From Malacoraja senta (Eukaryota), in assembly GCA_038087875.1 (NCBI GenBank), contig CM075989.1:8434001-8498000 (forward strand): a stretch of 64,000 nt of DNA. Direction: 5' to 3'. Positions 6,364 through 61,919 of the stretch are shown here, piece after piece. How positions within the stretch are numbered: the stretch's first letter is position 1; every line of letters starts with the position of its first letter. A model generated the notes under the pieces. The model had not been told where the DNA came from. It was given only the letters and a program-made list of their open reading frames with translations, and did not search any database. The translations under genes and the position numbers were made by a program.

Positions 6364-6476
6364 TCTTCTTCTTGCGTATGGTGTGCACAGCCTAACAAAA
6401 AACTACATCTGCAGGTCGGGTTGATTGCATTAGTCGAAACAGGGTGGACCACGTGAAGGTTGCAATCCCCCACCCC
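6364..6476 (-). mobile_element. Short non-autonomous retroposon, family A (HDV-like ribozyme head, GAA tail), internally deleted copy
   Basis: 12-bp TSD agtcagtgagat at 6352-6363 and 6477-6488; (gaa)n tail; both ends nearly identical to 55507-55646. Confidence 0.85.
6423..6476 (-). ncRNA. Minimal HDV-like ribozyme (predicted)
   Basis: GGGGUGG-GG-GAUUGCA-ACC-UUCACGU-GGU-CCACCCU-G-UUUCGA-CUAA-UGCAAUC: P1, P2 and P3 fully paired, G.U wobble at position 1, J4/2 cytosine present. Confidence 0.8.
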
Positions 6477-17349: not shown

Positions 17350-18430
17350 GCCAATCTTTCCCCCCTGAACGCACTGCCATCGACTCATTCCGCAACAACC
17401 TAGATTGGGTTATCAAACCCGCCGACAAGGGAGGTGCCGTGGTAGTCTGGCGCGTCGATCTCTACAAAGCTGAGACCACGCGTCAACTCTCGGATACCTC
17501 CTCCTACTTACCCTTGGACCATGACCCCACTGACGAGCACCAGGCCACCATCTCCAGCACCATCACCGACTTCATCCACTCCCACGCCCTGCCCGACCGA
17601 GCCTCCAACCTCATCGTTCCCCAGCCCCGCACAGCCCGCTTTTACCTTCCCCCCAAAATCCACAAACCTGACTGTCCCGGTAGACCCATTGTCTCTGCCT
17701 GTTCGTGCCCCACCGAACTCATCTCCACCTACCTCGACTCCATCCTATCCCCCTTGGTTAAATCCCTCCCTATCTATGTTCAAGACACCTCAGACACTCT
17801 CCGTCGTCTCCACGCATTCCGCTCTCTAGGCCCTCACCCCTTCATCTTCACCATGGACGTCCAGTCATTGTACACCTCCATCCCCCACCAGGATGGTCTC
17901 GAAGCCCTCCGTTTTCTCCTCGACCGAAGAAGCAACCTATACCCGGCCATTGACACCCTCCTCCGCCTAGCGGAGCTGGTCCTTACCCTCAATAACTTCT
18001 CATTTGACTCCTCCCATTTCCTCCAAATACAAGGCGTAGCTATGGGCACATGCTTGGGCCCCAGCTACGCCTGCCTCTTTGTCGGGTACGTAGAACAATC
18101 CTTGTTCAATGCGTACCAGGGCCCCATCCCCGACCTCTACCTCCGCTACATCGATGACTGTTTTGGTGCCACATCCTGCACCCACACACAACTGACTGAC
18201 TTCATCCGCTTCACCACCAACTTCCATCCGGCACTCAAATACACCTGGACCATTTCCAACACTTCCCTACCATTCCTTGACCTCACTATTTCCATCGCAG
18301 GTGATAGACTTCTTACCGACATCCACTACAAACCTACCGACTCCCATGGCTATCTGGACTACACTTCTTCCCACCCTGCTTCCTGTAAGGACTCCATCCC
18401 CCACTCCCAATTCCTCCGTCTATGCCACAT
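17350..18430 (+). CDS. Penelope-like element reverse transcriptase, 5'-truncated (part 1)
   Basis: VIKPADKGGAVVV, FYLPPKIHK..PGRPIVS, MDVQSLYTSIP, GVAMGTCLGPSYA, YLRYIDD and LPFLD are diagnostic PLE RT motifs; no stops. Confidence 0.95.
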
Positions 18431-21146: not shown

Positions 21147-21929
21147 ATCTGCTCCCAGGATGAGGTGTTCCACACCAGGACATCCGAAATGTCCTCATTC
21201 TTCAGGGAACGGGGGTTCCCCTCCTCCACCATAGATGAGGCTCGCACCAGGGTCTCTGCCATACCCCGCAACACTGCTCTCTCTCCCCATCCCCCCACTC
21301 ACAACAAGGGCAGAGTCCCCCTAGTCCTCACCTTTCACCCCACCCGCCGTTACATACAACAAGTGATCCTCCGTCAGTTTCGCCACCTCCAATGTGACCC
21401 CACCACTCGCCACATCTTCCCATCTCCCCCCATGTCTGCCTTCCGCAAAGACCGCTCCCTCCGTAACTCCCTTGTCAATTCTTCCCTTCCCTCCCGTACC
21501 ACCCCCTCCCCGGGTACTTTCCCTTGCAACCGCAAGAGATGCAACACTTGTCCCTTCACCTCCCCCCTCGACTCCATTCAAGGACCTAAGCAGTCGTTCC
21601 AGGTGCGACAGAGGTTCACCTGCATCTCCTCCAACCTCATCTATTGCATCCGCTGCTCTAGATGCCAGCTGATCTACATCGGTGAGACCAAGCGGAGGCT
21701 TGACGATCGTTTCGCCGAACACCTCCGGTCGGTCCGCAATAACCAACCTGACCTCCCGGTGGCTCAGCACTTCAACTCCCCCTCCCATTCCGTATCTGAC
21801 CTCTCCGTCCTGGGTCTCCTCCATGGCCACAGCGAGCAACACCGGAAATTGGAGGAAATGCACCTCATATTCCGCTTGGGCAGTCTACATCCTGGGGGCT
21901 TGAACATTGAATTCTCCCAATTCTGCTAG
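21147..21929 (+). CDS. Penelope-like element thumb/linker plus GIY-YIG endonuclease (part 2)
   Basis: ERGFP, CNRKRCNTC, NLIYCIRCSRCQLIYIGETKRRLDDRFAEH, PVAQHF and GLN motifs; in frame with part 1 once the CR1 is removed. Confidence 0.95.
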   Translation: MCSQDEVFHTRTSEMSSFFRERGFPSSTIDEARTRVSAIPRNTALSPHPPTHNKGRVPLVLTFHPTRRYIQQVILRQFRHLQCDPTTRHIFPSPPMSAFRKDRSLRNSLVNSSLPSRTTPSPGTFPCNRKRCNTCPFTSPLDSIQGPKQSFQVRQRFTCISSNLIYCIRCSRCQLIYIGETKRRLDDRFAEHLRSVRNNQPDLPVAQHFNSPSHSVSDLSVLGLLHGHSEQHRKLEEMHLIFRLGSLHPGGLNIEFSQFC

Positions 21930-33069: not shown

Positions 33070-35688
33070 TAGAAACATAGAAACATAGAAATTAGGTGCA
33101 GGAGTAGGCCATTCGGCCCTTCGAGCCTGCACCGCCATTCAATATGATCATGGCTGATCATCCAACTCAGTATCCCATACCTGCCTTCTCTCCATACCCT
33201 CTGATCCCCTTAGCCACAAGGGCCACATCTAACTCCCTCTTCAATATAGCCAATGAACTGGCCTCAACTACCCTCTGTGGCAGAGAGTTCCAGAGATTCA
33301 CCACACTCTGTGTGAAAAAAGTTCTTCTCATCTCGGTTTTAAAGGATTTCCCCCTTATCCTTAAGCTGTGACCCCTTGTCCTGGACTTCCCCAACATCGG
33401 GAGCAATCTTCCTGCATCTAGCCTGTCCAACCCCTTAAGAATTTTGTAAGTTTCTACAAGATCCCCTCTCAATCTCCTAAATTCTAGAGAGTATAAACCA
33501 AGTCTATCCAGTCTTTCTTCATAAGACAGTCCTGACATCCCAGGAATCAGTCTGGTGAACCTTCTCTGCACTCCCTCTATGGCAATAATGTCCTTCCTCA
33601 GATTTGGAGACCAAAACTGTACGCAATATTCCAGGTGTGGTCTCACCAAGACCCTGTACAACTGCAGTAAAACCTCCCTGCTCCTATACTCAAATCCTTT
33701 TGCTATGAAAGCTAACATACCATTCGCTTTCTTCACTGCCTGCTGCACCTGCATGCCTACTTTCAATGACTGGTGTACCACGACACCCAGGTCTCGCTGC
33801 ATCTCCCCTTTTCCTAGTTGGCCACCATTTAGATAATAGTCTGCTTTCCTGTTTTTGCCACCAAAATGGATAACCTCACATTTATCCACATTATACTGAA
33901 TCTGCCAAACATTTGCCCACTCACCCAGCCTATCCAAGTCACCTTGCAGTCTCCTAGCATCCCCCTCACAGCTAACACTGCCCCCCAGCTTAGTGTCATC
34001 TGCAAACTTGGAGATATTGCATTCAATTCCCTCATCCAGTTCATTAATATATATTGTAAATAGCTGGGGTCCCAGCACTGAGCCTTGCGGTACCCCACTA
34101 GTCACTGCCTGCCATTGTGAAAAGGACCCGTTTACTCCCACTCTTTGCTTCCTGTTTGCCAGCCAGTTCTCTATCCACATCAATACTGAACCCCCAATGC
34201 CATGTGCTTTAAGTTTGTATACTAATCTCTTATGTGGGACCTTGTCGAAATCCTTCTGGAAGTCCAGATACACCACATCCACTGGTTCTCCCCTATCCAC
34301 GCTACTAGTTACATCCTCGAAAAATTCTATAAGATTCGTCAGACATGATTTACCTTTCGTAAATCCATGCTGACTTTGTCCAATGATTTCACCACTTTCC
34401 AAATGTGCTGCTATCCCATCTTTAATAACTGACTCTAGCAGTTTCCCCACTACCGATGTTAGACTAACTGGTCTGTAATTCCCCGTTTTCTCTCTCCCTC
34501 CCTTCTTAAAAAGTGGGGTTACGTTTGCTACCCGCCAATCCTCAGGAACTACTCCAGAATCTAAAGAGTTTTGAAAGATTATTACTAATGCATCCACTAT
34601 TTCTGGAGCTACTTCCTTAAGTACTCTGGGATGCAGCCCATCTGGCCTTGGGGATTTATCGGCCTTTAATCCATTCAATTTACCCAACACCACTTCCCGA
34701 CTAACCTGGATTTCACTCAATTCCTCCAACTCCTTTGACCCGCGGTCCCCTGCTATTTCCGGCAGATTATTTATGTCTTCCTTAGTGAAGACGGAACCAA
34801 AGTAGTTATTCAATTGGTCCGCCATATCCTTGTTCCCCATGATCAACTCACCTGTTTCTGACTGCAAGGGACCTACATTTTTTTAAACTAATATCTTTTT
34901 TTTCACATATCTATAAAAACTTTTGCAGTCAGTTTTTATGTTCCCTGCCAGTTTTCTTTCATAATCTATTTTTCCTTTCCTAATTAAGCCCTTTGTCCTC
35001 CTCTGCTGGTCTCTGAATTTCTCCCAGTCCTCCGGTATGCTGCTTTTTCTGGCTAATTTGTACGCATCATCCTTCGCTTTGATACTATCCCTGATTTCCC
35101 TTGTTATCCACGAATGCACTACCTTCCCTGATTTATTCTTTTGCCAGACTGGGATGAACAATTTTTGTAGTTCATCCATGCAGTCTTTAAATGTCTTCCA
35201 TTGCATATCCACCGTCAACCCTTTTAGAATTAATTGCCAGTCAATCTTGGCCAATTCACGTCTCATACCCTCAAAGTTACCTTTCTTTAAGTTCAGAACC
35301 ATTGTTTCTGAATTAACAATGTCACTCTCCATCCTAATGAAGAACTCAACCATATTATGGTCACTCTTGCCCAAGGGGGCACGTACAACAAGACTGCTAA
35401 CTAACCCTTCCTCATTACTCAATACCCAGTCTAAAATAGCCTGCTCTCTCGTTGGTTCCTCTACATGTTGATTTAGATAACTATCCCGCATACATTCCAA
35501 GAAATCCTCTTCCTCAGCACCCCTGCCAATTTGATTCACCCAATCTATATGTAGATTGAAGTCACCCATTATAACTGTTTTGCCTTTGTCGCACGCATTT
35601 CTAATTTCCTGTTTGATGCCATCCCCAACTTCACTACTACTGTTAGGTGGCCTGTACACAACACCCACCAGCGTTTTCTGCCCCTTAG
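33070..35688 (-). mobile_element. Near-intact 5'-truncated CR1 LINE
   Basis: (TTTCTATG)n tail at 33070-33090; ORF2 covers endonuclease and RT. Confidence 0.95.
33167..35688 (-). pseudogene. CR1 ORF2 (APE + RT) with one in-frame TAA at 34883-34885
   Basis: ORFs 34883-35668 (VYRPP, MGDFN, SDHN) and 33167-34867 (QHGF, GVPQGSVLGP, FADD) are in the same frame, separated by one stop. Confidence 0.9.
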
Positions 35689-37789
35689 ATCATTTGCAAC
35701 AATTCACAGCACCAACATGCAGAGTTAGAGGATAATTAAACCTCCATCTAGCAAATATTGAAATGGTCTTTTTGTCAAAGATGCCACAGCATTTTAACAC
35801 TTACTGATCAATTTGAATGTATTTGCAGACTCTTGGATAAAGGCTTCTACTAGCTTGTAAGAAAATATCACAATGTCTTTGTTAAGCCTCTTTGGGAAAA
35901 TTTGATTGTATTGACCGGAATAATGGGTATGGGTACAACTGGACTCAAGACAACTTGTTGTTGTATTAAATACTATCAGTAGGATAGAGGACTGCCAGAA
36001 TCTTGTTCATATGTTCCAATAATCAGATGAAAAATTATTTTAAATAATACTACCATAGAATGGATAGAAATTAGTTTGACACAAGCAGATGAAGACATTA
36101 CTCATGTTTAACGATGATATCATGGTATGGTTTTAACCCAACATGACTTAATCCCATACTTAAAAAAACATGAAATAGTGAAACATTTCACTGCTTTAAA
36201 CCACTATCCCTATAATGTATTTGGGAAGATGAAGAATTTTACGCTGGTTTACATTAAAGTTAGGGTGGTTACCTCTCATTTTCCTCATATTGTAAACATT
36301 ATCCTAGCTGAGAGAGCGTGCAGGCAAGGGACCCATTCTCTGCAAATTCAGCAGGCGCTAAGGGATGCACTGAAGCTCGATGGAGCCAATGCAAAAGCTT
36401 TGTGGGGAAAGACTGCAGTCTAAGGTCCACCTGCCGCTGCATCCTGAGTGACTAAGCCCTGTGTAAAAGCCTCTCAGACATCTGAAATTGGTATTGCCCC
36501 AAGCCTCATGAGTGGTAATGGTGCTCTGCATGTAGAATGTTATGGGGTGTCAAAGGTTACGGGGAGAAGGCAGGGGAATGGGGTTAGGATAGAGAGATAG
36601 ATCAGCCATGATTAAATGGCAGAGTAGACTTAATGGGCCGAATGGCCTAATTCTGATCCTATCACTTACGATCTTATGACTGGATAACACTATCAACGTA
36701 AAGAAAGCCATTTCCTTTTTTTCCTATTTCTTGCATATATTCTTTATGAATACAGCTTCCGTTTGAAATTTAAAAATCCTTGTAACCAAATGTAGAGAGT
36801 GATGAAGGAGCTATCTGGCTTAAACTGGCTTCTGACCCAGCTTGTGATCCTCCATCCGACTGACAAACATCAATCTAATCTATTTCAATAATACTTTCAA
36901 AACATTACATGCGACAGAAGGATTCTGACCTTTTCATTAATTGAGAAACCTATTTTTGAATGTTGTTGGCTTTAAGCAATAGATTCTGAAAATTATGTGC
37001 TCTCACAAGGCTTTGCTAATCTAATACCTTTTTGGATTGATGTGGCTTATGGCTTATTCAACTTAGTAAGCACAGCTAATTCTTAGAGCAATTGGTCTGT
37101 CCATGCAACAAAATAATTCTAAACCTCAGCAAGGGAAAGGGGACTAATTTCTGCTTTCTCTAAAGAAGATACATTAATCTGCTTTAGTATTACTCAGAAA
37201 ACATTGCCAGAAAAGATAAAAAGAAAAGCCATCTTGCACCACTTCCTCCATGATCACTCCAGCTGGTAGTATTATAGACAGGGGTCACTGGTCTTGGAAC
37301 ATTCATTACAAAAGAGCCACGCCTTTGCTACAGTTATGGCGTGTTCTAAGCAGCCTCACATGTAGTAATGACACTTTACGATGAATGCCGTGACGCACTT
37401 TACAAGGTCAAATGGTCCCTTCAAGGAATTTAACCCAGACTAGACCCCACAGATTTTCTTTCTGGCCAACATTCATCCGTCAACTAACACCATGTGTGGA
37501 TGGAATGGTCGTGTATTTGAGGGATACTGTGTCGTGCAGAACCTGGCTGCTGCTTTTCCCTAACATTTCAATGAAGTCTTCAGACATGCTCGACTGGAAC
37601 ACACCTTGACCCATTCTACAGTATTGAACAATGTTATTTGAATGCAAATTATTCCTTCATGACAGACCTTTCTTTGAAATAAGCCCTTATTGATTTGTAT
37701 CAACTGCCAAATCCCTCTTCCTGTCACTTCTGTTCTGCTTTTAGTCCCTTTTTACTGATCTGATTGTGTGGCCAGGATGGGTAGATTCT

Positions 37790-44316: not shown

Positions 44317-45303
44317 TTATACAGAACTTAAAATAGTTTCTGCAAACAGCCCCGTATTGGTAATAGGCCGATAGTAAAACTGTTGAAACATCAACTCATT
44401 GGACCACCCGGCGGCTGCGAGAATATGGTCGACGGGGACGTCCTTCGCCGTGGCCGCCGACGTTGCTGCTGCCCTAGTCGAATGGGACGTAAAAACATCA
44501 GTGTTAATACCTGCAGCAATCAAGACTTGTTTTAGCCATCTTGAAATAGTCTGTACTGAGACTCTCTTGTGTGGTTTTTATTTGTGTGATAAACAAACCA
44601 GTTTCCATATTTCGTAAGACCCTTGTAACCTCAATGTATTGTAACAAATATGTCTTAGTACAGAGACATGGATCCGTTGGATATGCTGATAAAACAATTC
44701 TGAATCCTGTCACACCTGGCCTTCTTTGTTTCAGTAGGTCATAAATGTAAAACATAACATTATCTTCAGCCACTTACATCCTGTCTATTTGCAATTTTTG
44801 AAATGTCTGCACTCGCTGTGCTGTTACTAATGCCATAAGCATGACCACTTTCATACTGAGTTTGGCCAAAGTCAAAGACATACCAGGAGACCATTCACAA
44901 AGTAGCTTAAGAACCACACTTACAGTACATCCCAGATTGCCATGTACCTAGGCTTAGGCGGTCTGGAATTAAAAATTCCTTTCATCAATCTGGAAACAAG
45001 TGGATGAGACCCAATAGGATTTCCTTCCGACTCCACAAATAAATATGAGGACAATGCACTCCTGGCTGAATTAATTGCACTATAACTCAACCCCTCATTG
45101 TAATAAAGTGTTGACAAAAACTCTAAAACATTTGAGATATCTGCCGTACAATATTCAACATTATTTTGTACACAGAACTTTTCCCATTTCTTAATATAAG
45201 AAATGTACTGCTTTTGAGTGCTCTTCCTCCAGGCTGCCGTAAGCATGTCCACAGTATGCCCAGACAGTCCTTGCCCGAGAAAAGGCCTTCTTAAAACCTG
45301 CAA
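44317..45303 (-). pseudogene. DIRS tyrosine recombinase, disrupted
   Basis: 'GLSYSAINSARSALS', 'HPLVSRLMKG', TAQRVQ, 'FTSHSTRAAATS' (HxxR) and 'AAGWS...FQQFYYRPI' (catalytic Tyr); split over several ORFs. Confidence 0.85.
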
Positions 45304-45670
45304 ATTAACAAATCCAAACGATCATTTAATGGATGTTGTTCTCCTGTTACCAGATGCAGTAATAAATCCCTTCTTTTCGGGACTTTCATCAAAGGCCATG
45401 TCGTCAATTCTAATATCAAAGGAAACCATGGCTGTATAGGCCAATCTGGTACCACCAATACCCCTGAAGCGGTATCTTGCCTGATTTTAAGCAAACACCG
45501 ACTTATGAGGCAGAAAAGTGGAAATGCATACAAAAGCATACCACCCCAATGTAGCGAGAAAGCATCAATCGCTACTGCACCTGGATCTGGTTACAATGAC
45601 ACATATCTCGATAGCTGATGATTTAATCTAGATGCGAACAAGTCGATATCTGGCATTCCAAATCTGATTA
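45291..45670 (-). pseudogene. DIRS adenine-methyltransferase-like domain, disrupted
   Basis: 'PDIDLFASRLN', DAFSLHW, 'YAFPLF' (YAFPPF-like) and 'VLVVPDWPIQPWFP'; stop at 45591-45593. Confidence 0.75.
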
Positions 45671-47057
45671 CTATGTCATTGAATACCTCTCTATTCAACA
45701 TCCATTCTTTGTTATCATGGAATTTCCTTGACCTGGTGTCTGCTATAATATCCAATCTACCTGGTAGATAAATAGCAGAAATCCAAATACTCCTGTCAAT
45801 ACACCAAGACCAGATTTGATTAGCCAACTTATCACATGACACCGACTTGATTCCACCCATGTGATTAATATATGCCACTGCTGTTGTATTATCAATTTGC
45901 AACTGAACATGCAGGTTAGTTGTGTTAGAGCAATAAGCTTGGAGTCCATAGAACCCTCCTAAAAGCTCCAAATAGTTGATTCCCCATGTCTGCAGAAACA
46001 ATGCCTCTTCCGTATTCCATCTGCCTCCGCAGCTGGATACCAAATCAGTTGCACCCCATCCTAGTGCACTGACATCAGTTTGTAATACCATGGAAGGCTG
46101 TTCAGTCAGTATTTTGCTGAAACTGCTTGAGACATGTAGAATCCACCACTGCAAATCAGAAACAGCATTTGTTGTTAATTGCATGGCCCTATCAAAATGG
46201 CCACCATGCATCCTCAGTGCCTGTTCTTTAGCTCTCTGTAGCTGTTGGAAATGTAATGGCCCATATTGTACTGCTGGAAAAGCTGCTACTAATTTCCCCA
46301 GCACTCTAGCCACATGTCTAATTGAAGGTTTTCTCTCATTTAACAGCTTAATGCAACCATCAATCAACTCCACCCTTTTTTCACTGAGCAAAGTAATTTC
46401 CATGTGAACTGAATCAATTGTGAAACCCAGATAATCAATTGATGTACGTGGTGTTAACCTTGATTTCTTTAGATGAATTAGAAAACCCAAACTTTCAAAA
46501 GTGGATTTAACAACTGAGACAGATAACTCAGCTAACTCTTTTGTTCGTCCTATAATCAGGACATCATCCAGGTACTCCATTACCACATGCCCCTGGCCTC
46601 TCAGCAGCCCTAGAATTGGTTTTAATAATTTAGTGAATATTCTGGGAGCTGAAGTTAACCCATTAGGCAGAGCTTTAAACTGCCATAACTGATTCATCCA
46701 GGTAAATTTTAGATATTTTCTATCTTCCAAATGAACAGACACTGAATAATATGCATCTTTTAGATCAATAGTTGCCATATAACATGCTTTTGAAATCAGT
46801 TGTTTGGCAGTCACAAAAGTCTCCATTTTAAAGTGTCTAAATTGAACAAAAGGATTAAGACTTGTCAAGTCCAAAATAATCTTACATCCTCCATCCATTT
46901 TAGGTCGGGGAAATATATTAGACACTAATTGGTGGGTTTGATAAACCGACTTTTCAATAACACCTTTATTACATAGGTTTTCAAGTTCAGCTTGAACCTC
47001 CATCACTTCTTTTTGTGAAAACTGGAGTATTCTGCTAGGAACATGCTGGATGGGCAA
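45591..47057 (-). CDS. DIRS reverse transcriptase plus RNase H
   Basis: 'IDLKDAYY', 'FKALPNGLTSAPRIFTK' and 'YLDD'; RNase H 'TDVSALGWGA', 'INYLEL' and 'DNTTAVAYINHMGG'. Confidence 0.92.
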   Translation of the reverse strand: MPIQHVPSRILQFSQKEVMEVQAELENLCNKGVIEKSVYQTHQLVSNIFPRPKMDGGCKIILDLTSLNPFVQFRHFKMETFVTAKQLISKACYMATIDLKDAYYSVSVHLEDRKYLKFTWMNQLWQFKALPNGLTSAPRIFTKLLKPILGLLRGQGHVVMEYLDDVLIIGRTKELAELSVSVVKSTFESLGFLIHLKKSRLTPRTSIDYLGFTIDSVHMEITLLSEKRVELIDGCIKLLNERKPSIRHVARVLGKLVAAFPAVQYGPLHFQQLQRAKEQALRMHGGHFDRAMQLTTNAVSDLQWWILHVSSSFSKILTEQPSMVLQTDVSALGWGATDLVSSCGGRWNTEEALFLQTWGINYLELLGGFYGLQAYCSNTTNLHVQLQIDNTTAVAYINHMGGIKSVSCDKLANQIWSWCIDRSIWISAIYLPGRLDIIADTRSRKFHDNKEWMLNREVFNDIVIRFGMPDIDLFASRLNHQLSRYVSL

Positions 47058-47125
47058 ATCATAATTTGGATCGAACTCTATTCGAAATCCTTGTATAATA
47101 CTCAGAATAACAAAGTCTGAAGTAA

Positions 47126-48393
47126 TCAGCTTCCAACTTTTATAGAAGAGATGAATCTGCCCCCAACTTTTGGCTGTACTGCCTTCAATATGTTCCCATG
47201 AGAACCAGGTCCACCTACCTCCTTAGTCACTTGAGTGACCTGTGGTCCCTGGCTTCTGGCGGGAAGACCCACGCTTGTTCGTGTTCCCGCTGCAGGACGC
47301 CAACTACGCCCCTGCGACGATGATCGACTTGTTCCTGGTGTAGTCCCAGGATCAGTATGATGTCTGAAAGGATACCTCCTCTTCACAGACTTGCCAACCA
47401 TCGATGGTTTGATCAACCCGGCTGTTTTTGCCTCATCATCCAACTCCTTCACGCGTCTCGCGAGATCATCTCCAAAGAGTAAGTTGGGCAGCTGCACATT
47501 ACTGGGCTTGCAGAGTGCTACGAATTTGGGATTGATGGTGGGCCGAATAGCACACTTCCTCAAACAATTGATCTCGAGGTGGGCGCTACATAGCAACCCC
47601 AGTGCCTCCTGTCATCTGCTGGCCTTTATCCATTGTTCTGGCAAATGCAGTTATTCCAGAACCCAGCAGCTTTAATATTCTCTGCAGCTTTATTTCTTGA
47701 GCTCTCATGCTCATGCCCATCAGACCCCATATCACTTGGTTTACTGCTGGTGCTTTCAATAAAATGCAGGTCCTCAGGGTCTCGTGCTTTTTGGCAGTTT
47801 CATCCATCGTAAGCTGCTCCAGCTGATGGGATACCAAATAGTTGATCGTGGAGGCCAACTCCTCTCCCAGTGGCTCTCCTGACCCTGACGGGGCAGCGAA
47901 TCATACTGCCAGAGGTGGAATATCTGGCAGCTGCCGTTCTTCGCTTGAATCGGCCTCACCGTCAGAGTCGGGGTCAGAACTCTGCTGACCCTGTGCACGT
48001 GCCTCATCAATGAGGGTGCTCTCAAACAGCCCTTTGCTAGGTGCTGCTGACCTGGCTTCTGGAGCCTGACTTTGGCTACACTCTTCACTGAGTGTGCTTT
48101 TCTCCAGTAACCTGTGTATCAGGCTTTCCATCCGAGAGATCCGCTCAAAAGCGGTTTCCAGCCCTGGAGTCGCATCCTCCTCATCGGACTCCTCCTCCGT
48201 GGGCCGCACGGACTTGAATTTTGCCTTGCGCCCCACTGGCGCTGACTGAGTTCTTTTCAACCCCAAGTCCACAGTCGCTACGCTCCCAGCCGGCGACTGT
48301 ACAGGGGTCTGAGGCAGCTGTTCGCCGACCGCAATCTCGCGACTTTCCACCGGCTTTGCCGCTAGCCTCTTCCCCCTTGCCCGTTTTTTCCAT
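47126..48393 (-). pseudogene. DIRS gag-like ORF, frameshifted
   Basis: Upstream of RT; 'LLFGDDLARRVKEL' is typical of DIRS ORF1 C-termini; good-context ATG (gcaccATGG) at 48393. Confidence 0.65.
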
Positions 48394-50375
48394 GGTGCCT
48401 GTGGAAAAAATCCCCACATACCCACAGCAAACGGACGCGGAAACTTACGTTTCCACTAGAGGAGCGCTGCTCCTCACGTCCGTTCGTGCCAATGCGTCTG
48501 ACGTAATGACGCGCAGGCGCCCTGACGGGTCTTCTTCACGTAGTCACTCACGTGACTCCGAAGTAAAATGGATGATATAACATGTGAGTGGAATAACATA
48601 GATGTAGTGTGAACCGGCGATAGATAGGTGGGCTCAATGGGCCGAAGTACTTGCCATATCTCTAAAACCAAAACTAAATACCAAATACAAAACTAAATGA
48701 AGAGCAATTCTGGATGGATCAGAAGACATTAGAAGAATGATACCATGAGCTATCTCTCCCACCGAATTGTCAAACCTCTCAAGATTCTTGGGGAAATTCT
48801 TTACCTCTGATTGAAGAAATGTTTTTTTTTATTTTTTAAAGCTGGCATTAAATATTCTAAGCTGGAAACTGGTGCGGGTGTCATCGGGAACGGGTCTTCA
48901 GTGAAGTTCACCAGAATGGGGAAGAAGAGTCAAGTGCCAATGGCAACAGCAAGATCATTTACTGACTCGAATTTACCACAGTGTACCATCAGAGGCCTGT
49001 CCCAGTGTTATCTGTGTGAGCACCTGTCACTGTACTTAACTGGAACGGGAAAGAGAGGATATCGTGAGCCCAAACCGAAGCAACGGAATGAATCAATTAT
49101 CAAGAGACACAAGTCAATTCCATGTTTATTCCTGATCTAGATTCAGTCTGACAGCGTGGGCCCCCAGTTCCTGCACACTTCAACATGATTTCACAGCAAA
49201 TAGCAAGGTCGATGTAACTGATCGCATCTCACTATCCCTGCCCCGTTAGTTAATTAATTAACAGCAACTAATATCTCTCCACCATCAAATCCCACTCTGA
49301 TTTCATAAGCTGTCAAGACCTGGGTAGAATTACTTCCAACGTGTTCCTAATTCACAAAGACACTTCTCACTTGAGAACTTAGGGGAGGAAGGAGAAAAAA
49401 AAACTCCACTGACATTTTCATTTAACATCATTGTTTCTCGACACTCGATATAATGTGCAGCGTTTAAAAGCCTTTACCACGAGGAGCAGAGCGAGTATTA
49501 TTGTGCAGGATCAATACTTTTCATTGCGCCATGTCTCCGATGAATCTGATTGACATTCTCGTAAACCTTAAACCAACGTTTCCTACAGACTTTCTTGTTT
49601 AACGCCCCCCTTTTAACATAAAGCTCGGGCTCTTTACCATATTCCACCCTTCACTGCTCGCCACATTACTGTGCTAAACAGGTGCCGGCGATGGGATTTA
49701 AACCCAACCGTGACATCAAGGAAAGCTGTAACAAGCTCCAGGAGAAGGGGGAAAAAACGTTGATTTTATTAGCAGGATTTGATGCGTTTGATTGAAGGCA
49801 ATTTTAACATCTTTTCCGAGTTCAATTCCACTTGTGTGTCTAAAGGAGCCAGTCGTTTCACCCGTTATAACCTGTCATTTGTTCTCAGTGATTGGTTAGT
49901 TAAGTGAAATTCCATGAGCATATGGAACACATTTGCCCGGAGCTCTGCAATAATAGATATCTCCAGTCGTCATTACGAGGATCTGCTAATAGCTTTCTTG
50001 CTCCTTCTCACGCTCCAATCCTCTTCATATCCTCTTCCACTACAATTATAATTTAATGAGACTTGGACTCGTCCTTCAATCGAAAAAAAAAGCAGCGCTT
50101 CTTTGAATAATTTACTTAACATCACTTACAGCAGCATCTGATAAGTTAAAGGGGTGAGAGAGAGAAGGACAGTTGACTCTGCCTCTCTCAGTAGAAAAGG
50201 CTTCATTAATTTTTCATTGCCGGGGCCGGCCGGGATGAATGCCGTCTGGTAAACATCATATCAGCAGTGACCTTGCTTCCGTACACATTCCTCCCTCCGA
50301 GAGCTGCCTGCCATCTGTTTGCTATGAGTCTATCTGCAGCACCCTTGTCAGGAACGGGAGGGGGGAGTTAAAGGA

Positions 50376-51954: not shown

Positions 51955-52250
51955 CATTTTAGTTTTTTAAAATACAGCATGGAGCCAGGCCCTTCGGTCC
52001 ACCAAGTCCACGCCAACCAATGATCAACTGCACAATAGTTCTATCCTACACACTAGGGACATTTTACAGAAGCAAGTAACCTTCAAACCTGTACATCTTT
52101 GGAGTGGGGCAGGTAACCGGAGAACCTGGAGAAAACTCACGCAGTCATAGGGAAAATGTACAAACTCCGTACAGACAGCACCGTTTGTCAGGATCGAGGC
52201 CGGGTCTCTGGCGCTGAAAGACAGCAACTCTACCGCTGCGCCACCATGCT
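51955..52250 (-). mobile_element. HE1-type V-SINE
   Basis: Reverse complement of head, V domain and tail. Confidence 0.8.
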
Positions 52251-52509
52251 GCAGATGAATCCATAGGTGAATTCCAATGTCCTCAATGGGGTAGAGGTGA
52301 ATCAGCCAGTACCCTAGCTTATGGATGGTCCATTCAGAAGCCTGATTACAGGGGTAACAACCTATTCTAGTCTGGTGGTGCGTGCTTTCAAGCTTCTGTG
52401 TCTGTATGCCGGACAACACAGCACATTCTGACAGAGATAGCCAGAGTGGGACAAGTCTTTGATCCATTGCCTACTCTTTTCACGGATGCAACAATGTTGA
52501 TTCAAAGTT

Positions 52510-52812
52510 GGGCAGCACGGTGGCGCAGTGCTAGAGTTGCTGCCTTACAGCGCCAGAGACCCAGGATCGATACTGACTAAGGGTGCTGTCTGTACGGAGT
52601 TTGTTCGTTCTCCCTGTGACCTGCGTGGGTTTTCTCTGGTTTCCTCCCACACTTCAAAGACGTGCAGATTTGTAGGTTAATTGGCTTTGGTAAAATTGTA
52701 AATTGTCCCTAATGTGTGTAGGATAGTGTTAGTGTGCGGGGATCGCTGGTTGGCGTGGACTCGGTGGGCCGAAGGGCCTGTTTCTACGCTGTATCTCTAA
52801 ACTAAACTAAAC
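52510..52812 (+). mobile_element. HE1-type V-SINE, full length
   Basis: gggcagcacggtggcgcag head through to (ctaaa)n tail. Confidence 0.9.
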
Positions 52813-53010
52813 TTCATTGCTCAGTGTAAGTACTTTCAAGAATTGTATTCTCAGTTATCCATTAAAACAATTCCTGAGGGGGGGGGGGGGTCTAAATTCA
52901 TGATGTGAATTGAGGTATATGCCATACGGGAATGGGAAACTATATAGGTAACAGGACATCTTAGATCTAGTATTGTGTAATGAGGAATAATTAATTGACA
53001 TCAATTTGCG

Positions 53011-53082
53011 AAAGGATCATTTGGGGAAGAGTAATCATAATATGATAAAGGATCTTTTGGGGAAGAGTAATCATAATATGAT
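53011..53082. repeat. 36-bp tandem duplication
   Basis: aaaggatc(a/t)tttggggaagagtaatcataatatgat twice, 1 mismatch. Confidence 0.9.
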
Positions 53083-53164
53083 AGCATTTTGTTTCAAGTT
53101 TGAGAAAGGTGTGCTTGTCAAATGCAAACCATGCTCTTAAGAAAATGAGGAATGAGTTGACAAA

Positions 53165-53502
53165 ATGCAGGAAAAATGTTCCCCATGTTGGGGGAGTCCA
53201 GAACCAGGGGTCACAGTTTAAGAATAAGGGGTAGGCCATTTACAACTGAGATGAGAAAAAACTTTTTCACCCAGTGAGTTGTGAATCTGTGGAATTCTCT
53301 GCTTCAGAAGGCAGTGGAGGCCAATTCTCTGGATGCTTTCAAGAGAGAGTTAGATAGAGCTCTTAAAGACAGCGGAGTCAGGGGATATGGTGAGAAGGCA
53401 GGAACGGGGTACTGAATGTGGATGATCAGCCATGATCACAGTGAATGGCGGTGCTGGCTCGAAGGGCTGAATGGCCTACTCCTGCACCTATTGTCTATTG
53501 TC
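53165..53502 (+). mobile_element. CR1 3' fragment with (TTGTCTA)n tail
   Basis: Reverse complement of the 8398-8720 family. Confidence 0.85.
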
Positions 53503-53640
53503 ATTGATGACGAGGATCAGTGTGATCCCCACATAGCAAAATCTCAGCTATACCAGCAATAAGAATGCAAGAGCAAGTCAGAATGTGGGTGCCTTGCTGT
53601 GAATGGCTCACATATTTAGTTTGGCTTAGTTTATTCTCTT

Positions 53641-54029
53641 GTAGTAGTTGGCCCCCCTCAGTCATGACTGATGATGGGTGATGCATCCTAGTTTGCAGGT
53701 GATGTGTGATCGGATGCAAGCCTGGGCGATGTCATATGGAGGACAGGCTGTTGCCCATGCAGCACGACCCCCCCTCTCCACGTCGCTGATTGATCCAAAG
53801 GAACAGCAGGGCCGTTACAGTTTGGCACCAGCTCCGTCGCAGGAGCTGCCAGAGCGAGGTTGTAGACAACGACGAACTACCTTAGGGGCTCCGACTCCGT
53901 ATTTTCTTGTGGTTTACTCCTGTAACCTTTTCCATGACTGGATATGGCCACAAGGCAGTGGAGGTTTTAAATCAGAGTTTTCCCTCTCCTAGATGGACTG
54001 CCTTCCCAGGCTGACGAGCCCCATCTGCC
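53641..54029 (-). mobile_element. Probable non-autonomous RTE-derived element (5' UTR-like body with (CTA)n tail)
   Basis: Minus strand begins ggcagatggggctcgtcagcctgggaagg, which I recognise as RTE 5'UTR-like, and ends caactactac; interrupts a Rex1-like tail (53615-53640 / 54035-54345). Confidence 0.5.
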
Positions 54030-54349
54030 AGAATGTGTACAGTGAAAAACTATTGTTGCATGCTAACCAGGCAGCCGAAAGACAATACATGATTACAATC
54101 GATCCATCCACAGTGTACAGATACATGATAAAGGGAATAACATTCAGTGCAATATAAAGTCCAGTAAAGTCAGATCAACAATAGTCCGAAGTTCTCCATT
54201 GACGTAGATAGTAGCTCAGGATTGCTCTCTAGTTGTCGGTAGGATGGTTCAGTTGCCTGATACTGGCTAGGAAGAAATTGTCCCTGAATCGGGAGGTGTG
54301 TGTTTTCACACTATTGCACCTTTTGCCTGACGGGAGAGGGGAGAAGGGG

Positions 54350-55060
54350 TTTAATTTGTACCCACTTTGGATTTCTTTGGCAGTTCAATAATCTAAGTGA
54401 TGAAGATCTGCTTTCAACAATTGAACAATTTCAGCAACAGTATCACAAAGAGGTCTCAAACGATCTTGGAGATGAGGTGCTATTTCTTAAACAAATATAT
54501 TCAGTAAATTTAAATTGGATGGCAAGCCAAAGGAATTGCTGCAGGAGATTCTAACTTTGGGATTGGCTGGGTTATTTCCAAATATTATGATTGCATTGAG
54601 ATTTTTAATAAATTTACCAGCATCTGTGGCTCCAGGGGAAAGGAGATTCAACGTGTTGAAGCAGGTGAAGAATCACCATCATTCAACTATGGGACAAGAA
54701 CGTTTGAATGGACTTGCCATGTTGAATGTTAATTGTGATATTGCACGGCAACTAAACTTTACATCTCTAATCAATGATAATCTGTAAAACGAAAACTTGT
54801 AATAAAAAAGTATTTGTAATAATCATAACTGTTATATATTTTGAAGAAAAAGTGTTAAATTTGTCGAAAATTGAAATGAGAGAAAAAACTAAAAATTCTA
54901 ATATTTGAACTACCTAGATATTAAATATTCCAATTACATAAGAATGGGCAAAAAAACAATAATTAGTCTTCTAAGTTGTGAATGTGAAAAAAATGCACTC
55001 ATATTTGCTTGATCTTGGTTTGGGGGCCTCTAAAATTGAAATTGGCCTGGGCCTCAGTTC
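54350..55060 (+). mobile_element. hAT transposase remnant (C-terminal dimerisation domain, Tip100/ZMYM1-like)
   Basis: 'LFPNIMIALRFLINLPASVAPGERRFNVLKQVKN...STMGQERLNGLAML' (ORF 54515-54787). Confidence 0.85.
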
Positions 55061-55506
55061 AACTACGAGGGCCTTGCTGAGGCAGCGTGAGATGTAAATG
55101 GAGTCAATGGAAGTGAGGTTGGTTTGTGTGATGGGCAAACTTGCCCGTGGGTACTCTTGCCAGCCGAGGCACACGGGAAAAAGCATTTATGTTGCAACGC
55201 CATCCTGATGTGGAAATATATTGCGGGGCCATCATTATTGTTGAGCCTAAACTCTGGAACAAGCTGCCTGCGATCACCTTGGCCCAGTAGTTCCAGAAAA
55301 TGGCTCACCGCCACCCTCTCAGGGACATTCATTCATTGGTAATAGAAAATTGGCCTTGCTGTGATGCCCCATCCCGAAAAATTAAAGATATTGAAAATTA
55401 ATATCTCCACCAGAATATGGCACTGGCATGGCTAGAGAAGTTTGGCAAGAAAAACAGCGTCTGAAAATTGGGAAGTTTTTAAGAATCACAAAGTGTGAGT
55501 CAGGAA

Positions 55507-55646
55507 CTTCTTCTTCTTCTTGCGTATGGCGTGCACAGCCTAAAGATGTAGATCAACTTGTTCTATTTGATCTTGCTTGTGCACGTCGGGTTGATTGCAT
55601 TAGTCGAAACAGGGTGGACCACGTGAAGGTTGCAATCTCCCACCCC
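55507..55646 (-). mobile_element. Short non-autonomous retroposon, family A (HDV-like ribozyme head, 3' hairpin, GAA tail), full copy
   Basis: 9-bp TSD agtcaggaa at 55498-55506 and 55647-55655; (gaa)n tail. Confidence 0.88.
55593..55646 (-). ncRNA. Minimal HDV-like ribozyme (predicted)
   Basis: GGGGUGG-GA-GAUUGCA-ACC-UUCACGU-GGU-CCACCCU-G-UUUCGA-CUAA-UGCAAUC. Confidence 0.82.
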
Positions 55647-55699
55647 AGTCAGGAATTGATAGATATAGAAAAGAGGAATGTAGCACAAAATATTTTTTT

Positions 55700-56370
55700 A
55701 AAGGGATTGTAAAAAAACAATGTTGCAATGGGTAAAGACAAGATATCAATGTAAACAAATATGGTATCATAGAGGTGAGGGGATGTATTTATAAAGAGGA
55801 TTGAGGAAACAGCAGAGCTATTAAATAAATATTTCCGTCTACCTTCATATTTGAGACTATATAGAATATTGCAAGCATGCAAGAGTCTTGGAATGTTCAG
55901 CAATTCAAATTAGGAAAGAAAATCGACTGGAAAAATAAATGGGATTAAAAGTAATCAATGCCCCTGAATGTCTCTACCATGGGATTTTAAAAAGAAGCAA
56001 CTGCAAGGATGCGGTGGCGTTAATCCACCTGGATTCTAGAATGGTCCCCGTGGATTAAAAATTAACAAACGTAACCTCAGTCTTCTTGAAAGAAAGAAGG
56101 AAGTAAACGGAAGAGTATAGGTCTGTTATTCCAACATTATTACTAGAGAATTTGTAATAATATATTATTAAAAATGTGGTGAATATTCGATATGGAAATT
56201 CATAATTCGATTAGGCCGAGTCAACATGGCCACAGGGAAGGGAAGTCATGATCGACACATCTATTAGTATTTTTGAGAGTGCATTTGCAAGTTTGAGTAA
56301 AGAGAACCAGTGGATACAGTTTAGTTAGGTTTTTCAGAAGGTTCTTTATAAAGTGCACATGGGAGGTTGT
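55700..56370 (+). mobile_element. Old degenerate CR1 RT fragment
   Basis: Decayed 'ELLNKYF' and 'MVPVD*KLTNV' motifs, plus 'SQHG..GKS'-like and 'GFQK..YKV'-like remnants. Confidence 0.55.
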
Positions 56371-56725
56371 CATGGCCTTGACAGAATGTTGTCTAGGACA
56401 TGCTACATGCAGGCATGGACTGTTTCAGTTGCGACTGAGTTATGAATCCTGAGATCTTAAAATAGAAGAGCAGAATCAGGCCACTGGGCCCATTGTGTCT
56501 GCTCCAAAATTCGATCATGGAATGGAATTGAATATTGTGCAATCATCAGTGGACGTCTACTTCTGTCCTTATGATGGCGGTAAAAGTTAAAGATATAACA
56601 GCTCAATGTGGTTGGACTTGCAACACTGCACTGAGGAACTCCTGGGGTTCAGGTGATTAACCTTCAACAACCTCAACCACCTTAATTAGTTTACGGCACA
56701 ACAGTCATTGGAGTTTTTCCCCTTT

Positions 56726-56931
56726 CTTCTTCTTGCGTTTGAAGCAGCAGAAGTCTGTAGCAGGGTGATGCCATCCGGTTCGACATCCGTAGGTGCCCGC
56801 CCTAAAAAGGGCGCATGCTCCAGGTTGGCTCCAAGCTGCGGAGCTGCTGCTACTGTCTCTGTTTGTTGTCGTTCGCCTGACTGAGGTGAGTTGACAGGGC
56901 TCACCACGGGGATGTCGACAACATGAGCCCC
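56726..56931 (-). mobile_element. Short non-autonomous retroposon, family B (HDV-like ribozyme head, GAA tail)
   Basis: TSD tttccccttt at 56716-56725 and 56933-56942; tail acgcaagaagaag as in family A; different body. Confidence 0.8.
56864..56931 (-). ncRNA. HDV-like ribozyme (predicted, one P3 mismatch)
   Basis: GGGGCUC-A-UGUUGUCG-ACA-UCCCCGU-GGU-GAGCCCU-G-[P4 region]-CGAA-CGACAACA. Confidence 0.72.
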
Positions 56932-57401
56932 GTTTCCCCTTTGAAACTCCTTGACTCATTTTAACAAGGATGTTGATTAAATGCTGTCAACACTCAGCGT
57001 CGGCACTCCCACCTCACTGCGGAACTCTGCTTTTTGGACCATAAGGTGCAATGAGACATAGAGCTAAGTGGTTCTGACAAAGCCCACACTGGCCATTGGT
57101 GAGAAGATTGTTAAGGAGGAAGTACCACTTGATGACGATGTCAACAATGGCTTCCATCAAGTTGCTGATGATTGAGAGGAGACTGTGTAGCAATTAACTG
57201 AAATAGATGTCTGGCTTTTTGTGAGTTGGACATATCTGAGAAATGTTGCTCATTCTTGGGTAGATGCTACTGTAGTAACATTCTGAAACAGCCGAGCTAG
57301 AGTTGCAGCTTGTTCTCAAATGCAGATCTTGAGCAATATATCTGGAATATTTTACAGTTCCATACCTTTTCTGTTCTATGTTCAAGAGGCAGAAAGGGTT
57401 A

Positions 57402-57806
57402 AGGGCCTGTCCCACTTGACGAGGTAATTCACGAATTCTCCCGAGTTATTCACGAATTCTCCCGAGTTTTCCCCTTGATTCAAACTCACAGAATGTCCGT
57501 AGCGAGTCCGTAGGAGTTCGTAGATATTTCGTAGTGGCTCGTTATGCCAGCCGTAGGTACTCGGGGCATCAGGTAAGTCGGGACGTTTTTTCCAGCCTGA
57601 TAAAAAATGTCCACGAGTAAAAAAATAGTCAGGAGGATGCCCCGAGTACCTACGGCTGGTTTACGATATATTTACGGACTCCTATGGCCTCCTACAGACG
57701 GATGTTATGGACATTCTGCGAGTTTGAATCACGGGGGAAAACTCTGGAGAATTCATGAATAACTCGGGAGAATGCGTGAATTACCTCGTAAAGTGGGACA
57801 GGCCCT
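57402..57806. mobile_element. PIF/Harbinger-like palindromic MITE
   Basis: Termini agggcctgtcccac / gtgggacaggccct; TTA TSD at 57399-57401 and 57807-57809; inverted symmetry extends most of the way to the centre. Confidence 0.88.
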
Positions 57807-58117
57807 TTAGATTAAGCAGACACCAGGTTCAGCACGGAGATTGTGGGCTGAAGGACCCGTTCTTGTGCTGCACTGTTCTATGTACTCAGTTTTCACACAT
57901 ACCAAACCAAATTTTCTGAATGCAGACCTCTGTAATTGAGTCAAGGGGCTTCAAAGGGAAAATACTTTTGGAGTCATGCCTTGCACGAATGAAGATGGTT
58001 GTGGTTGTTGAAGGTTAAGCACCTCAACCCCAGGAGTTCCTCAGTGTGGCGTTGAAAGTCCAACCACATTTTGTTCAAGAGGATGTCAGGAGGACGCCAG
58101 GATGGATCATCTACTTT

Positions 58118-58306
58118 GTAGGAAGGAACTGCAGATGCTGGTTTAAATCTAAGATAGACACAAAAAGCTGGAGTAACTCAGCGGGACAGGCAGCACGTTT
58201 CGGGGATGAGTCTGAAGAAGGGCCTCGACCAGAAATGTCACCCATTCCTTCTCTCCAGAGATGCTGCCTGTGCCGCTGAGTTACTCCAGCTTTTTGTGTC
58301 TATCTT
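58118..58306. mobile_element. Palindromic Penelope-derived short element
   Basis: aagatagacacaaaaagctggagtaactcagc and its reverse complement; ctgaagaagggcctcgaccagaaatgtc. Confidence 0.75.
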
Positions 58307-58309
58307 TGG

Positions 58310-58830
58310 ATCATAACATTTACGAGGCTGTTGCCAGGATTCGAGGGCCTGAGCTACAGGGAGCGGATGGGGAGGCTACGATTTTATTCCTTGGAACGCA
58401 GGAGGCTGAGGGGTGATCTTATAGAGGTGTACAAGATCATGAGGAAAATAGACAAGATCAATACACAGAGTATTTTTTCCCAAGGTTAGGGGAATAAAAA
58501 AAAGAGGACATAGGTTTAAGGTGAGAGGGGTAAGATTTAATAGGACACAAGGAGAAACATTTTCACTCAGAGGATGGTGCGTATATGAAACGAGCTGCCG
58601 GAGGAGGTAGTTGAGGAAGGTACTATAACAACATTTAAAAGACACTTGAACAGGTACATGATTAGGAAGAAATTAGAGGAATATGGATCAATAGACAATA
58701 GACAATAGACAATAAGTGCAGGAGTAGGCCATTCAGCCCTTCAAATGGAACTAGCTTAGATGGGGCATCCAGGACGGCATGGAAGAGTTGGACTGAAGGG
58801 CCTGTTTCAATGCTATATGACTCTATGACA
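58310..58830 (+). mobile_element. CR1 3' fragment
   Basis: 'RRLRGDLIEVYKIMRKID...RGHRFKVRG' remnants. Confidence 0.8.
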
Positions 58831-59859
58831 TAACCATCAACATTGCCTGTCACCGTTACCATTCCCCCATTTTACTGGAACAAGGTTCAGGACCTAGAAA
58901 GCCTGGACATTCAGGTTTAAGAACAGCTTCCTTCCCACTGCCACCCAACTATAGTAGCAATCGCCTCTTTCACATCCTGTTCCCAAGGATGCCACCATGT
59001 ACTCACTGCTTTTGACTTTGCACTTTTTATCTTTTGTAAATGACACTAAAATATGGCGACCTGTGCAAGAATTTCACTGTGCAGTGCATATGTGACAATG
59101 TAGAAACATTGTAATTCATTTAGGTAGAGATTAGGTAGTGTTTCTGACACATTGTAATCCATTGTTAACTGTACATCATTCCAATATTGTATAATATTCG
59201 TTTGCGCTCGTCTGATTTTGAATCACACTCTTTCACTGTTCTACCGCTTTGCATTCATCTTTGTATTTATCAATACTGCGAGCGTACTGATTACTCTGTG
59301 AGCTTCATGTGAACAAATAAATTAATTGTACCTGGGTGCGTTGCATCATGACAAGAAACTAATTTACAATCAGTTGCCATTTCATCGTCAAAGGTGAGGA
59401 TCTAAGCAACTTTATTCCTACTATAAAAATAAGTTGTTACACAAAAGCATTGCATAACACAGTACGTGGGCTGCCTGCCAACAAAGCATTTCTCTGGCAA
59501 CTCAAGTGGAATATATAGTATGAAAGAAACCTTTAATAGAAAAATTGTAAGATTGTCTGATGTTAGACACAAAAAGCTGGAGAACGGTGCATTCCTAAAT
59601 CAGTCTATGCCAATGGTGGAATCTTCAGCTACCTTCTGTCTTTGGAGTTGACATTTTGAATTGCTGCAACTCCTATCTTCTTAAAACTAGTCTTCAACTG
59701 CATTTCCTCAAACCTTTTCTATTCCCGAACCAATTCCCATTAGGATGCTTGATATGTTTAGCACAATCTGGAATTATTGTTGGGAAGGAAAGCTTTGTTC
59801 AAATTGTCAAGTTGACTTTTGGATTAAAATTAGGGTTACATTTAGAAAAGGAAAGCCAA

Positions 59860-60180
59860 GAGTCCACGAATGGCGGCAGAGAGAGTCGGCAGCTTCAGGT
59901 TCCTGAGTGTTCATATTGCTGAAGATCTGTTCTGGGCCCAGCACATTGATGCATTCATAAAGAAAGCTCATCAGAAGTTTGAGAAGATTCAGCATGTTGC
60001 CAAATACTGTATCAAACATCTACAGGCATACGGTAGAGAGCATACTGACTGGTTGCACCATGGCCTGGTTTGGTCATTTGAATGCCCAAGAACAAAGAAC
60101 GCTGCAGAAAGTGGTGGACATTGCCTGGTCCATCACAGGTATTGATATTCCCACCATCAAAGAGATCTACAGGAGGTGAT
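59860..60180 (+). mobile_element. Rex1/Babar-like LINE fragment
   Basis: 'SFRFLSVHIAEDLFWAQH' and 'VESILTGCTMAWFG...LQKVV'. Confidence 0.75.
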
Positions 60181-61919
60181 GCACAACCCTAACCAAACAG
60201 TATGAACACTGACTTGTCTAACTTCAAGTAGCCGTTGCTTTCCCTCTCTCTCCATCCCCTCCCCCTTCCCAGTTCTCCCACCAGCCTTACTGTCTCCGAC
60301 TACATTCTATCTCTGTACCGCCCACTCCCCTGACATCAGTCTCAACCCGAGACGTCACCCATTCCTTCTCTCCAGAGATGCTGCCTGTCCCACCGAGTTA
60401 CTCCAGCACTTTGTGTCTATCTTCGACCCTAACCACAACCCTGTCTCAGCACAAGAACTATTATATACTTTTTATATGTAGCACCACGTCCTTCAACTTG
60501 CACTGGTATGGCTTGGTTACATAGTATAACTTATTTATTATATTATTGTTTATTGTATTTTTATTTGTTGTATTACTGGATTAATTTTCCTATGAAGCTG
60601 CAGCAAGCAAGAATTTTATTGTTCCATTCCCAGCGCATATGACTATTAAACATTTCTGATTCTCTTGGTTTGGTTCATTATGTTCTATGTTTCTATGGGT
60701 TATTGATTGGGGATGATCAGCCATGATCACAATGAATGGCGGTGCTGGCTCGCAGGGCCGAATGGCCTCCTCCTGCACCTATTGTCTATGTTTCTATGTC
60801 TATGTCTGTAGATTTTACCAGAATAGGCCCACTTGAGATGATGGGTGACAGGACCTTAAGATACTAAAAAGAAACAAAACTGTGGAAGGGGAAACCGCTG
60901 AAATGTGAAAGAATTAATTGGCCCCGTTATAGGCAAAACAGGAGAGATCGGGAGGAGGGTAACATGCAGAAAACAATGACTTAACGTTTTCTCTAGTCTT
61001 TGTTCTGGACAGATATCAACTTGTTTGCCAGCTGCTTCCATTTCCATTAAGATAAAAAAACATCGCTGAACACAAGTAGGCATTTGAGATTAGCCTTCAA
61101 TTACAATGTGTGCTGAGTAGTAATAAAATAGTCAGGTCTTGGATGCCCGTCAGATCCCTTGGCCACTGAACGGAAAACATGCTGAAGACACACTTTAACT
61201 AAAGTTACTGCAGTTTCTCATCGAGTGGTATGAACCATTCGACGGATTAACAATCCAATTAAATGAATGCAAGATAATTATGCCGCCTTAACATTGTCTG
61301 ATACAGTGAGTAGATAAGAGTCACATCTTGTGAATTCGGAATCTCCAGAGAGTTGATGAGGAGACGGTGTCCTCAATATATACGTGTGGAAACTGGAGCA
61401 GGACATTCTGTACATCATTCTTGCTCCACTAATTTTGTCATTGTAATTGCAATTCTCTGCATCTTTAGCATACTAAATCCCATGGAAAAAGAGATGAAGT
61501 GCAATGTACAAGAACAAAACACATCTTTCTTTTGAAATATTATTCTTTTTTTTTTCTGTTTGCACTCAGTGGCAATTTTTTGTTGTTGCCCATGATACAA
61601 TTCTACATCAATATTTATCATGGAAACCAAGCATGTTAATCTATCCGCACAGATACTCATTCATGCTCCTTCACACCAAGTGAGAATGCAAAGGAGATAC
61701 AATGGACTACAGACAAATAAGGACACACAGTGCTGCAGTAACTCAGTGGGTCAGGCAGCATCTCTGGAGATCATGGACAGGTGCTGATTTGGGTTGGGAC
61801 CCTTCTTCAGACTGAAGAATGCATCACAGATTTGAAATTCAGTCTTATTGCAGTTAATTAAAGTATTTAAACTTTTTGTCCTATCTTGTTTTATTTTGTG
61901 GTTCTCTTTGTTGAAGTCA

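Follow-up and report, generated by a model that had tools for sequence, protein, structure and literature searches.

Alignment to other repeats of the same genome indicated that family B, a short retroposon with an entire copy in the window (the whole 64,000-nt stretch of DNA analyzed here), most probably arose by internal deletion from a Vingi-like LINE, termed V7, and is non-coding. Of its parent, it keeps only the 5' end, where an HDV-like ribozyme is predicted, and the 3' UTR; the V7 protein likely performed the copying in trans. We place the probability of this reading at roughly 0.85.

The 5' portion of B corresponds to the first ~220 nt of V7 less a deletion of ~45 nt. In the full-length V7 copies (L322, L323, L325, and L326), B nt 1 to 85 stand at the very 5' end of the LINE. 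A deletion of 40 to 48 nt relative to V7 follows nt 85 and takes out the ATG, leaving B without coding capacity. B nt 83 to 174 match the beginning of the V7 frame until the first codons of the APE domain, after which ~3.0 kb are deleted; B then resumes in the V7 3' UTR, from the last base of the stop codon, and its 3' 28 to 31 nt are 93 to 96% identical to that UTR.

V7 itself is a ~3.3-kb LINE with a single ORF, in which an APE domain is followed by RT and by a weak match to a C-terminal zinc finger; none of the five V7 pieces searched matched an RNase H domain. It was reached with a V1 RT query and a pattern for the start of the APE domain (265 matches, with 5 in the control), which exposed further related families. 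A V7 element with both ends is found in L322 (oriented 214-3486), and an intact 1,011-aa homologue (P0002) is colinear across V7. All V7 copies examined were broken. In a phylogeny of RT domains that held no named Vingi or Ingi reference and whose outgroup labels were assigned from domain content, V1 to V7, V9, and seven database homologues formed one clade (89 ultrafast bootstrap support), apart from the Nimb-like, CR1-like, and RTE-like rows; three of the six RTE-like loci entered this tree, the other three having been dropped for short alignment. Identity between the V families and the RT of the DUF6451-bearing RTE-like elements was 25 to 32%, and the latter lie on a separate branch. The available parts of PMC13708176 describe Vingi elements as compact, with a single ORF encoding APE and RT and no RNase H, and from architecture together with the RT tree we infer that V7 is a Vingi-like LINE.

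Two other occurrences of V7 sequence were observed. One V7 insertion, with shared flanks and a partial V7 copy before it, is present in over 20 small contigs (L294-L321) and is a V7 copy, ribozyme head included, trapped in an amplified repeat unit. In addition, 33 nt surrounding the start codon in the V7 5' region have been expanded into a tandem array of ~12 units (L283, oriented 1-430).

The window copy begins, on the minus strand, with the HDV-like fold that had been read from its sequence in the preliminary description. P1 pairs GGGGCUC (56931-56925) with GAGCCCU (56902-56896) at 7 of 7 positions, position 1 being a G-U pair; J1/2 is a single A; P2 pairs UGUUGUCG (56923-56916) with CGACAACA (56871-56864) at all eight positions; L3 is UCCCCGU (7 nt); and J4/2 is CGAA, with its C at 56875. 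One P1.1 pair is possible, between a C of L3 and the G after P1. In HDV-like ribozymes, the first U and the late G of L3 and the catalytic C and A of J4/2 have active-site roles, and U, G, C, and A are present at these assumed positions in the window copy. Also as described, P3 carries one mismatch (ACA/GGU, 2/3 pairs), P4 is imperfect (4/5 pairs), and G1 lies within 1 nt of a 10-bp target site duplication (TSD), AAAGGGGAAA, with one extra C between them. The changes at 56913 (P3) and 56888 (P4) are private to this copy, which, with one pair lost from each of the two stems, is expected to cleave weakly if it cleaves at all. It is a decayed insertion that shows no sign of host function. Coordinates are given in Table 1.

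Table 1. Features of the family B copy and of the family A copies in the window
Feature	Position	Strand	Description or evidence
Family B element, entire copy, ~205-206 nt	56726..56931	-	Probable non-coding V7 derivative with internal deletions
Predicted HDV-like ribozyme (P1, P2, P3, one-pair P1.1, P4, J4/2 CGAA)	56864..56931	-	Predicted cut right before G1, 56931
Block 1: first 85 nt of V7, ribozyme + 17 nt	56847..56931	-	Alignment to L322 and L326
Block 2: remaining V7 5' region and first ~30 codons of the ORF, until APE domain start	56755..56846	-	V7 alignment
Block 3: V7 3' UTR from last base of the TAA stop of the ORF, past the ~3.0-kb deletion	56735..56754	-	L322, L323, L324, L325, L326, L328, L329
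(AAG)3 microsatellite tail	56726..56734	-	Sequence
Upstream TSD copy, 10 bp	56933..56942	.	Extra base 56932 before G1
Downstream TSD copy, 10 bp	56716..56725	.	Sequence
Family A copy	55507..55646	-	A 9-74 matches V1 5' end, A 91-137 matches V1 3' end
Second, shorter family A-type copy, same head	6365..6476	-	Descriptor match

The surroundings of the window copy, from 52216 to 60218, are duplicated 148 kb upstream (G000:C13:8338000-8346000, L331) over at least 8 kb at 99.94% identity, which reflects either a recent segmental duplication or assembly redundancy; the B copy in this duplicate (L002) does not count as an independent one. The window also carries other elements. At 44923-48455 (-), matches to RT and to the integrase N-terminal SAM-like domain presumably mark a DIRS-type tyrosine-recombinase retrotransposon. 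A GIY-YIG-bearing element interrupted by a LINE lies within 17037-21926 (+), and a further LINE with long open frames at 33170-35689 (-); we take the former to be a Penelope-like element broken by a CR1-like LINE and the latter to be a CR1-like LINE.

With a descriptor loosened just enough to fit the window B copy, the window contains three matches: this copy and, at 55646 and 6476, the two copies of family A. Scanning both strands of 400 dinucleotide-shuffled versions of the window gave no match. An Rfam search of the window returned no match at the gathering threshold. The best sub-threshold match at the B copy was to an HDV family, RF02682 (21.2 bits, E = 0.16, threshold 44), on which a B copy with the majority head scored 32.8 bits. 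Nested folding of the B head yielded z-scores of -0.42 and -0.48, i.e., no special stability, values that are uninformative for a double pseudoknot.

A DNA search of the 1.94-Gb genome with B returned 844 first-look candidates, 40 of which were scored and were 92 to 100% identical. A 26-mer across the B-specific deletion junction had 397 matches in the genome (≤2 mismatches) and none in the control, giving the family at least 397 copies. The majority sequence of 30 family B loci has ACC/GGU in P3 (3/3) and CUGAC/GUCAG in P4 (5/5). Where copies cover the position, the C of P3 is found in 21 of 23. Both repairs predicted for the consensus in the preliminary description were thus borne out. For boundaries, the first 30 exact junction matches were taken, all on contig C1 and picked regardless of the head. 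Nineteen copies begin at G1, two at nt 2, and nine further in; among the 19, an exact TSD abuts G1 in 12, a 1-nt gap is seen in one, and the TSD is decayed or undetected in six. TSDs of B copies are 6 to 13 bp long and the insertions are dispersed. These starts agree with the earlier claim of a short retroposon family whose HDV-like fold sits exactly at the 5' boundary. The possibility that B forms an inner part of some longer element was not borne out, as B copies carry TSDs and (AAG)n tails of their own; furthermore, none of 30 loci selected by the 3' 66 nt of B continued into an ORF.

Once inserted, B copies decay neutrally, because head and body have diverged equally (54/1,453 versus 68/1,810 non-CpG differences among junction-selected copies), the catalytic C has been lost from 4 and kept in 22 of the 26 copies covering it, and the ribozyme core is intact in only 7 of the 30 junction-selected copies.

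Family A follows the same two-ended design, having been cut from another Vingi-like LINE, V1. Its 3' part resembles the end of a reading frame, and a pattern for such an end occurred at 193 places (0 in the control), which are V1 3' ends. A second deletion form of V1, with the family A head and a longer V1 3' piece, was observed with a TSD at L184 (oriented 1409-1560).

HDV-like folds with differing stems were parsed in the heads of V1, V2, V3, V4, V5, V6, and V7. On one parsing copy per family, all seven have a fully paired P1 (7/7; GGGGCUC, GGGGUGG, GGGGGGC, GGAGGAG, GGGCUGC, GGGAGAG, and GGGGAUC) and a fully paired P3 (3/3; ACC/GGU, GCG/CGC, or GCC/GGC), and five have a P2 of 6 to 8 pairs, the P2 of V4 and V5 being read by eye only. 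Covariation among heads was read by a descriptor script, which parsed 10 of 18 head stretches in one set and 8 of 11 in another, failures being mostly due to lost first bases or point changes. In a set comprising L280, L278, and L281 (locus positions 288-371 on the + strand) and L287 (292-374), three V6 heads exceeded the Rfam threshold for the mammalian CPEB3 ribozyme (RF00622), with 63.8, 59.7, and 52.8 bits versus 35. Below-threshold scores were obtained for one V9 head (34.4 bits), one V2 head (26.1 bits), and B-type heads (~33 bits on RF02682, threshold 44), and the head loci of V1/A, V3, V4, and V5 gave no Rfam match at E up to 0.5 (14 sources searched across all heads).

Since B stems by internal deletion from a LINE in the same genome, the predicted ribozyme belongs to the LINEs, and B inherited it. 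Likewise, A and B both derive from Vingi-like LINEs that fall in a single clade, so that the differences between their stems are covariation among homologous heads and do not represent two separate inventions. The preliminary description had argued that two unrelated stem sequences giving the same fold speak against chance. The covariation in this argument holds, with P1 and P3 kept in seven families, and so does the exclusion of chance by the shuffles; what does not hold is that the two are unrelated in origin. Judged from these sequence comparisons, the case for the fold by covariation is stronger than first stated, with seven families keeping it on different stems.

Parts of B were also found in 20 public runs from 12 studies. 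Four runs, from the organisms coded A, B, C, and E, contain many B copies whose ends, at G1 and at the tail, are loose. Runs X15, X16, and X18 consist of contigs (two only presumed to be RNA), with one contig in the metatranscriptome, and speak neither for nor against transcription or cleavage. In raw reads of organism H, V7 is represented by another deletion product, which is shorter and is composed of nt 1 to 88, 13 bases, and the same 3' UTR, with 333 reads on its main joint; the B junction was absent from these reads. Independent deletions have thus retained the same two signals, the head and the 3' UTR.

We propose that transcription would start at a host promoter and read through into a B copy, or would start at a promoter inside the head as in trypanosome Pr77, and that the ribozyme would then cut before G1 and free a unit-length RNA. 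The V7 APE-RT protein would recognize the 3' UTR of this RNA and insert it by target-primed reverse transcription. The cleavage and insertion steps are modeled on the L1Tc/NARTc ribozymes (PMC3185411, PMC4035085) and on R2 SIDEs (PMC3414825), as presented in the accessible portions of these papers.

The main competing explanation, which we consider unlikely, also derives B from V7 but has its 5' end set by an internal Pol II promoter acting at +1, with the ribozyme fold carried along and unneeded by B. The trypanosome Pr77 head combines promoter and ribozyme (PMC3383444 and PMC3185411, as far as available), and an internal promoter starting at G1 would likewise give the G1 boundary seen here. 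The lack of selection on the head among inserted copies fits such a promoter as well, but neutral decay after insertion is expected under both models, and the predicted ribozyme is retained in full in A, in B, and in the organism H form, which are three independent short derivatives. Moreover, no additional untemplated G separates G1 from the TSD at any of the 12 clean junctions, which argues weakly against a capped RNA.

Still less probable is that B, although derived from V7, owes most of its amplification to a different LINE, for instance V1, in the manner of R2/R1 hybrid SIDEs. V1 and B share their last 13 nt, and ACGC(AAG)n is common to B and V1/A; however, the 3' match of B to V7 extends over 28 to 31 nt, whereas that to V1 is confined to the last 13 to 18. 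Pairwise non-CpG divergence was 7.2% for B, 5.5 to 7.1% for V7, 5.5% for V1, and 1.2 to 1.5% for V2, V4, and V6. V1 is thus similar in age and, with every examined V7 copy broken, could have helped, but B is not younger than V7, and the young families V2, V4, and V6 carry different tails. From the shared 3' UTR, the equal age of B and V7, and the other tails of the young families, V7 is the likely helper of B. Because B and V7 are equally old and the V7 copies examined are all broken, family B is likely no longer active here.

Readings of B as a conventional Pol III SINE or as a SINE that depends on RTE or Nimb, and of its fold as chance, are refuted for practical purposes by the V7 alignment, in spite of the (AAG)n ends of the RTE and Nimb elements of this genome and the scores of the B head below Rfam thresholds: each block of B maps to V7, a tRNA search of B found none, its head is the 5' end of the LINE itself with no Rfam match to a SINE-type head (tRNA, 5S, 7SL, or snRNA), no shuffle matched the descriptor, and B matches neither the 12 RTE loci nor the Nimb loci beyond the AAG run.

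Several candidate partners were rejected. The 12 RTE loci, found through a PF20049 (DUF6451) search, differ from B at the 3' end. An Ingi-type partner was sought through RNase H, and neither A nor B matched any of the ten loci recovered, three of which were translated and encoded retroviral pol; the RNase H matches included retroviral pol-like frames, some open for more than 1,300 codons (L073, L076, and L077). Nimb-like LINEs, a label used here for a gag-like ORF1 with an APE-RT-RNase H-like ORF2, were the top PF14529 matches; they have (AAG)n tails, and their terminal hairpin is loosely similar, with no significant match to B. Three Nimb-like families with such tails were observed (L108-L157), one of them very young, with copies 98 to 99% identical and open frames of 1,277 aa. 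As parents of B, V1 to V4 gave no match above shuffles except over the last 13 to 16 nt.

The arrangement of B has counterparts in known systems, described here from the available parts of the cited papers. In trypanosomes, NARTc (from L1Tc) and RIME (from ingi), together with the Pr77/L1TcRz head and SIDERs, resemble B as short non-coding partners made of the 5' and 3' ends of an Ingi-group LINE (PMC3185411, PMC4035085). NARTc and RIME further share with B an HDV-like ribozyme at +1, a 3-bp P3, a single-pair P1.1, and dispersed insertions (PMC3185411, PMC4035085); HDV-like ribozymes are described as having a 7-bp P1 from G1, P2, P4, a 3-bp P3, and a P1.1 of 1 or 2 pairs (PMC3185411). B differs in its parent, which is Vingi-like and has no RNase H, in its non-trypanosome host, and in its (AAG)n tail, and whereas the NARTc ribozyme cleaves in vitro (PMC3185411), cleavage is predicted for B. 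Drosophila R2 SIDEs likewise join a 5' ribozyme to the parental 3' end by internal deletion and are copied in trans, but they are rare and their parent is rDNA specific with a restriction-like endonuclease, while B is dispersed in hundreds of copies and has an APE-type parent (PMC3414825). Non-autonomous derivatives of Vingi-1_EE and RTE elements such as Bov-A, WALLSI3, and RTESINE are bipartite like B, and Vingi is one of four clades named as producing bipartite non-autonomous LINEs (PMC5786205). The design itself is therefore known from trypanosomes and flies; apparently new here are its presence in Vingi-like LINEs and in a vertebrate host.

The CPEB3 ribozyme (RF00622) has the same fold and a one-pair P1.1 as in B, and the best V6 copies are identical to it in P3-L3-P3 and J4/2. 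CPEB3 is a single-copy intronic element, and the B head is unlike it in sequence, its best Rfam match being the sub-threshold RF02682. We tentatively suggest, at somewhat less than even odds, that HDV-like ribozymes are general at the 5' ends of Vingi LINEs, which would repeatedly shed ribozyme-plus-tail mini-elements (A, B, and the organism H form), and that the mammalian CPEB3 ribozyme is a domesticated Vingi 5' end. For the human genome, a remnant of Vingi is on record as X12_LINE (PMC5753468, available in part). In the literature covered, which was partial, we met no report of such mini-elements from Vingi, of a Vingi with an HDV-like ribozyme, or of a Vingi origin of CPEB3, and priority is uncertain.

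B reveals the naturally selected minimal RNA signals of a Vingi-like element, a 68-nt predicted ribozyme head and a 20-nt 3' UTR followed by (AAG)n. According to the accessible text of PMC13708176, Vingi-1 is under development as a tool for RNA-templated gene insertion, with its UTRs placed on either side of the template. A self-cleaving 5' end, if present in Vingi, would bear on the design of such templates. The seven natural stem variants provide a ready covariation set for HDV-like ribozymes, and the likeness between V6 heads and CPEB3 opens the origin of the mammalian CPEB3 ribozyme to testing.
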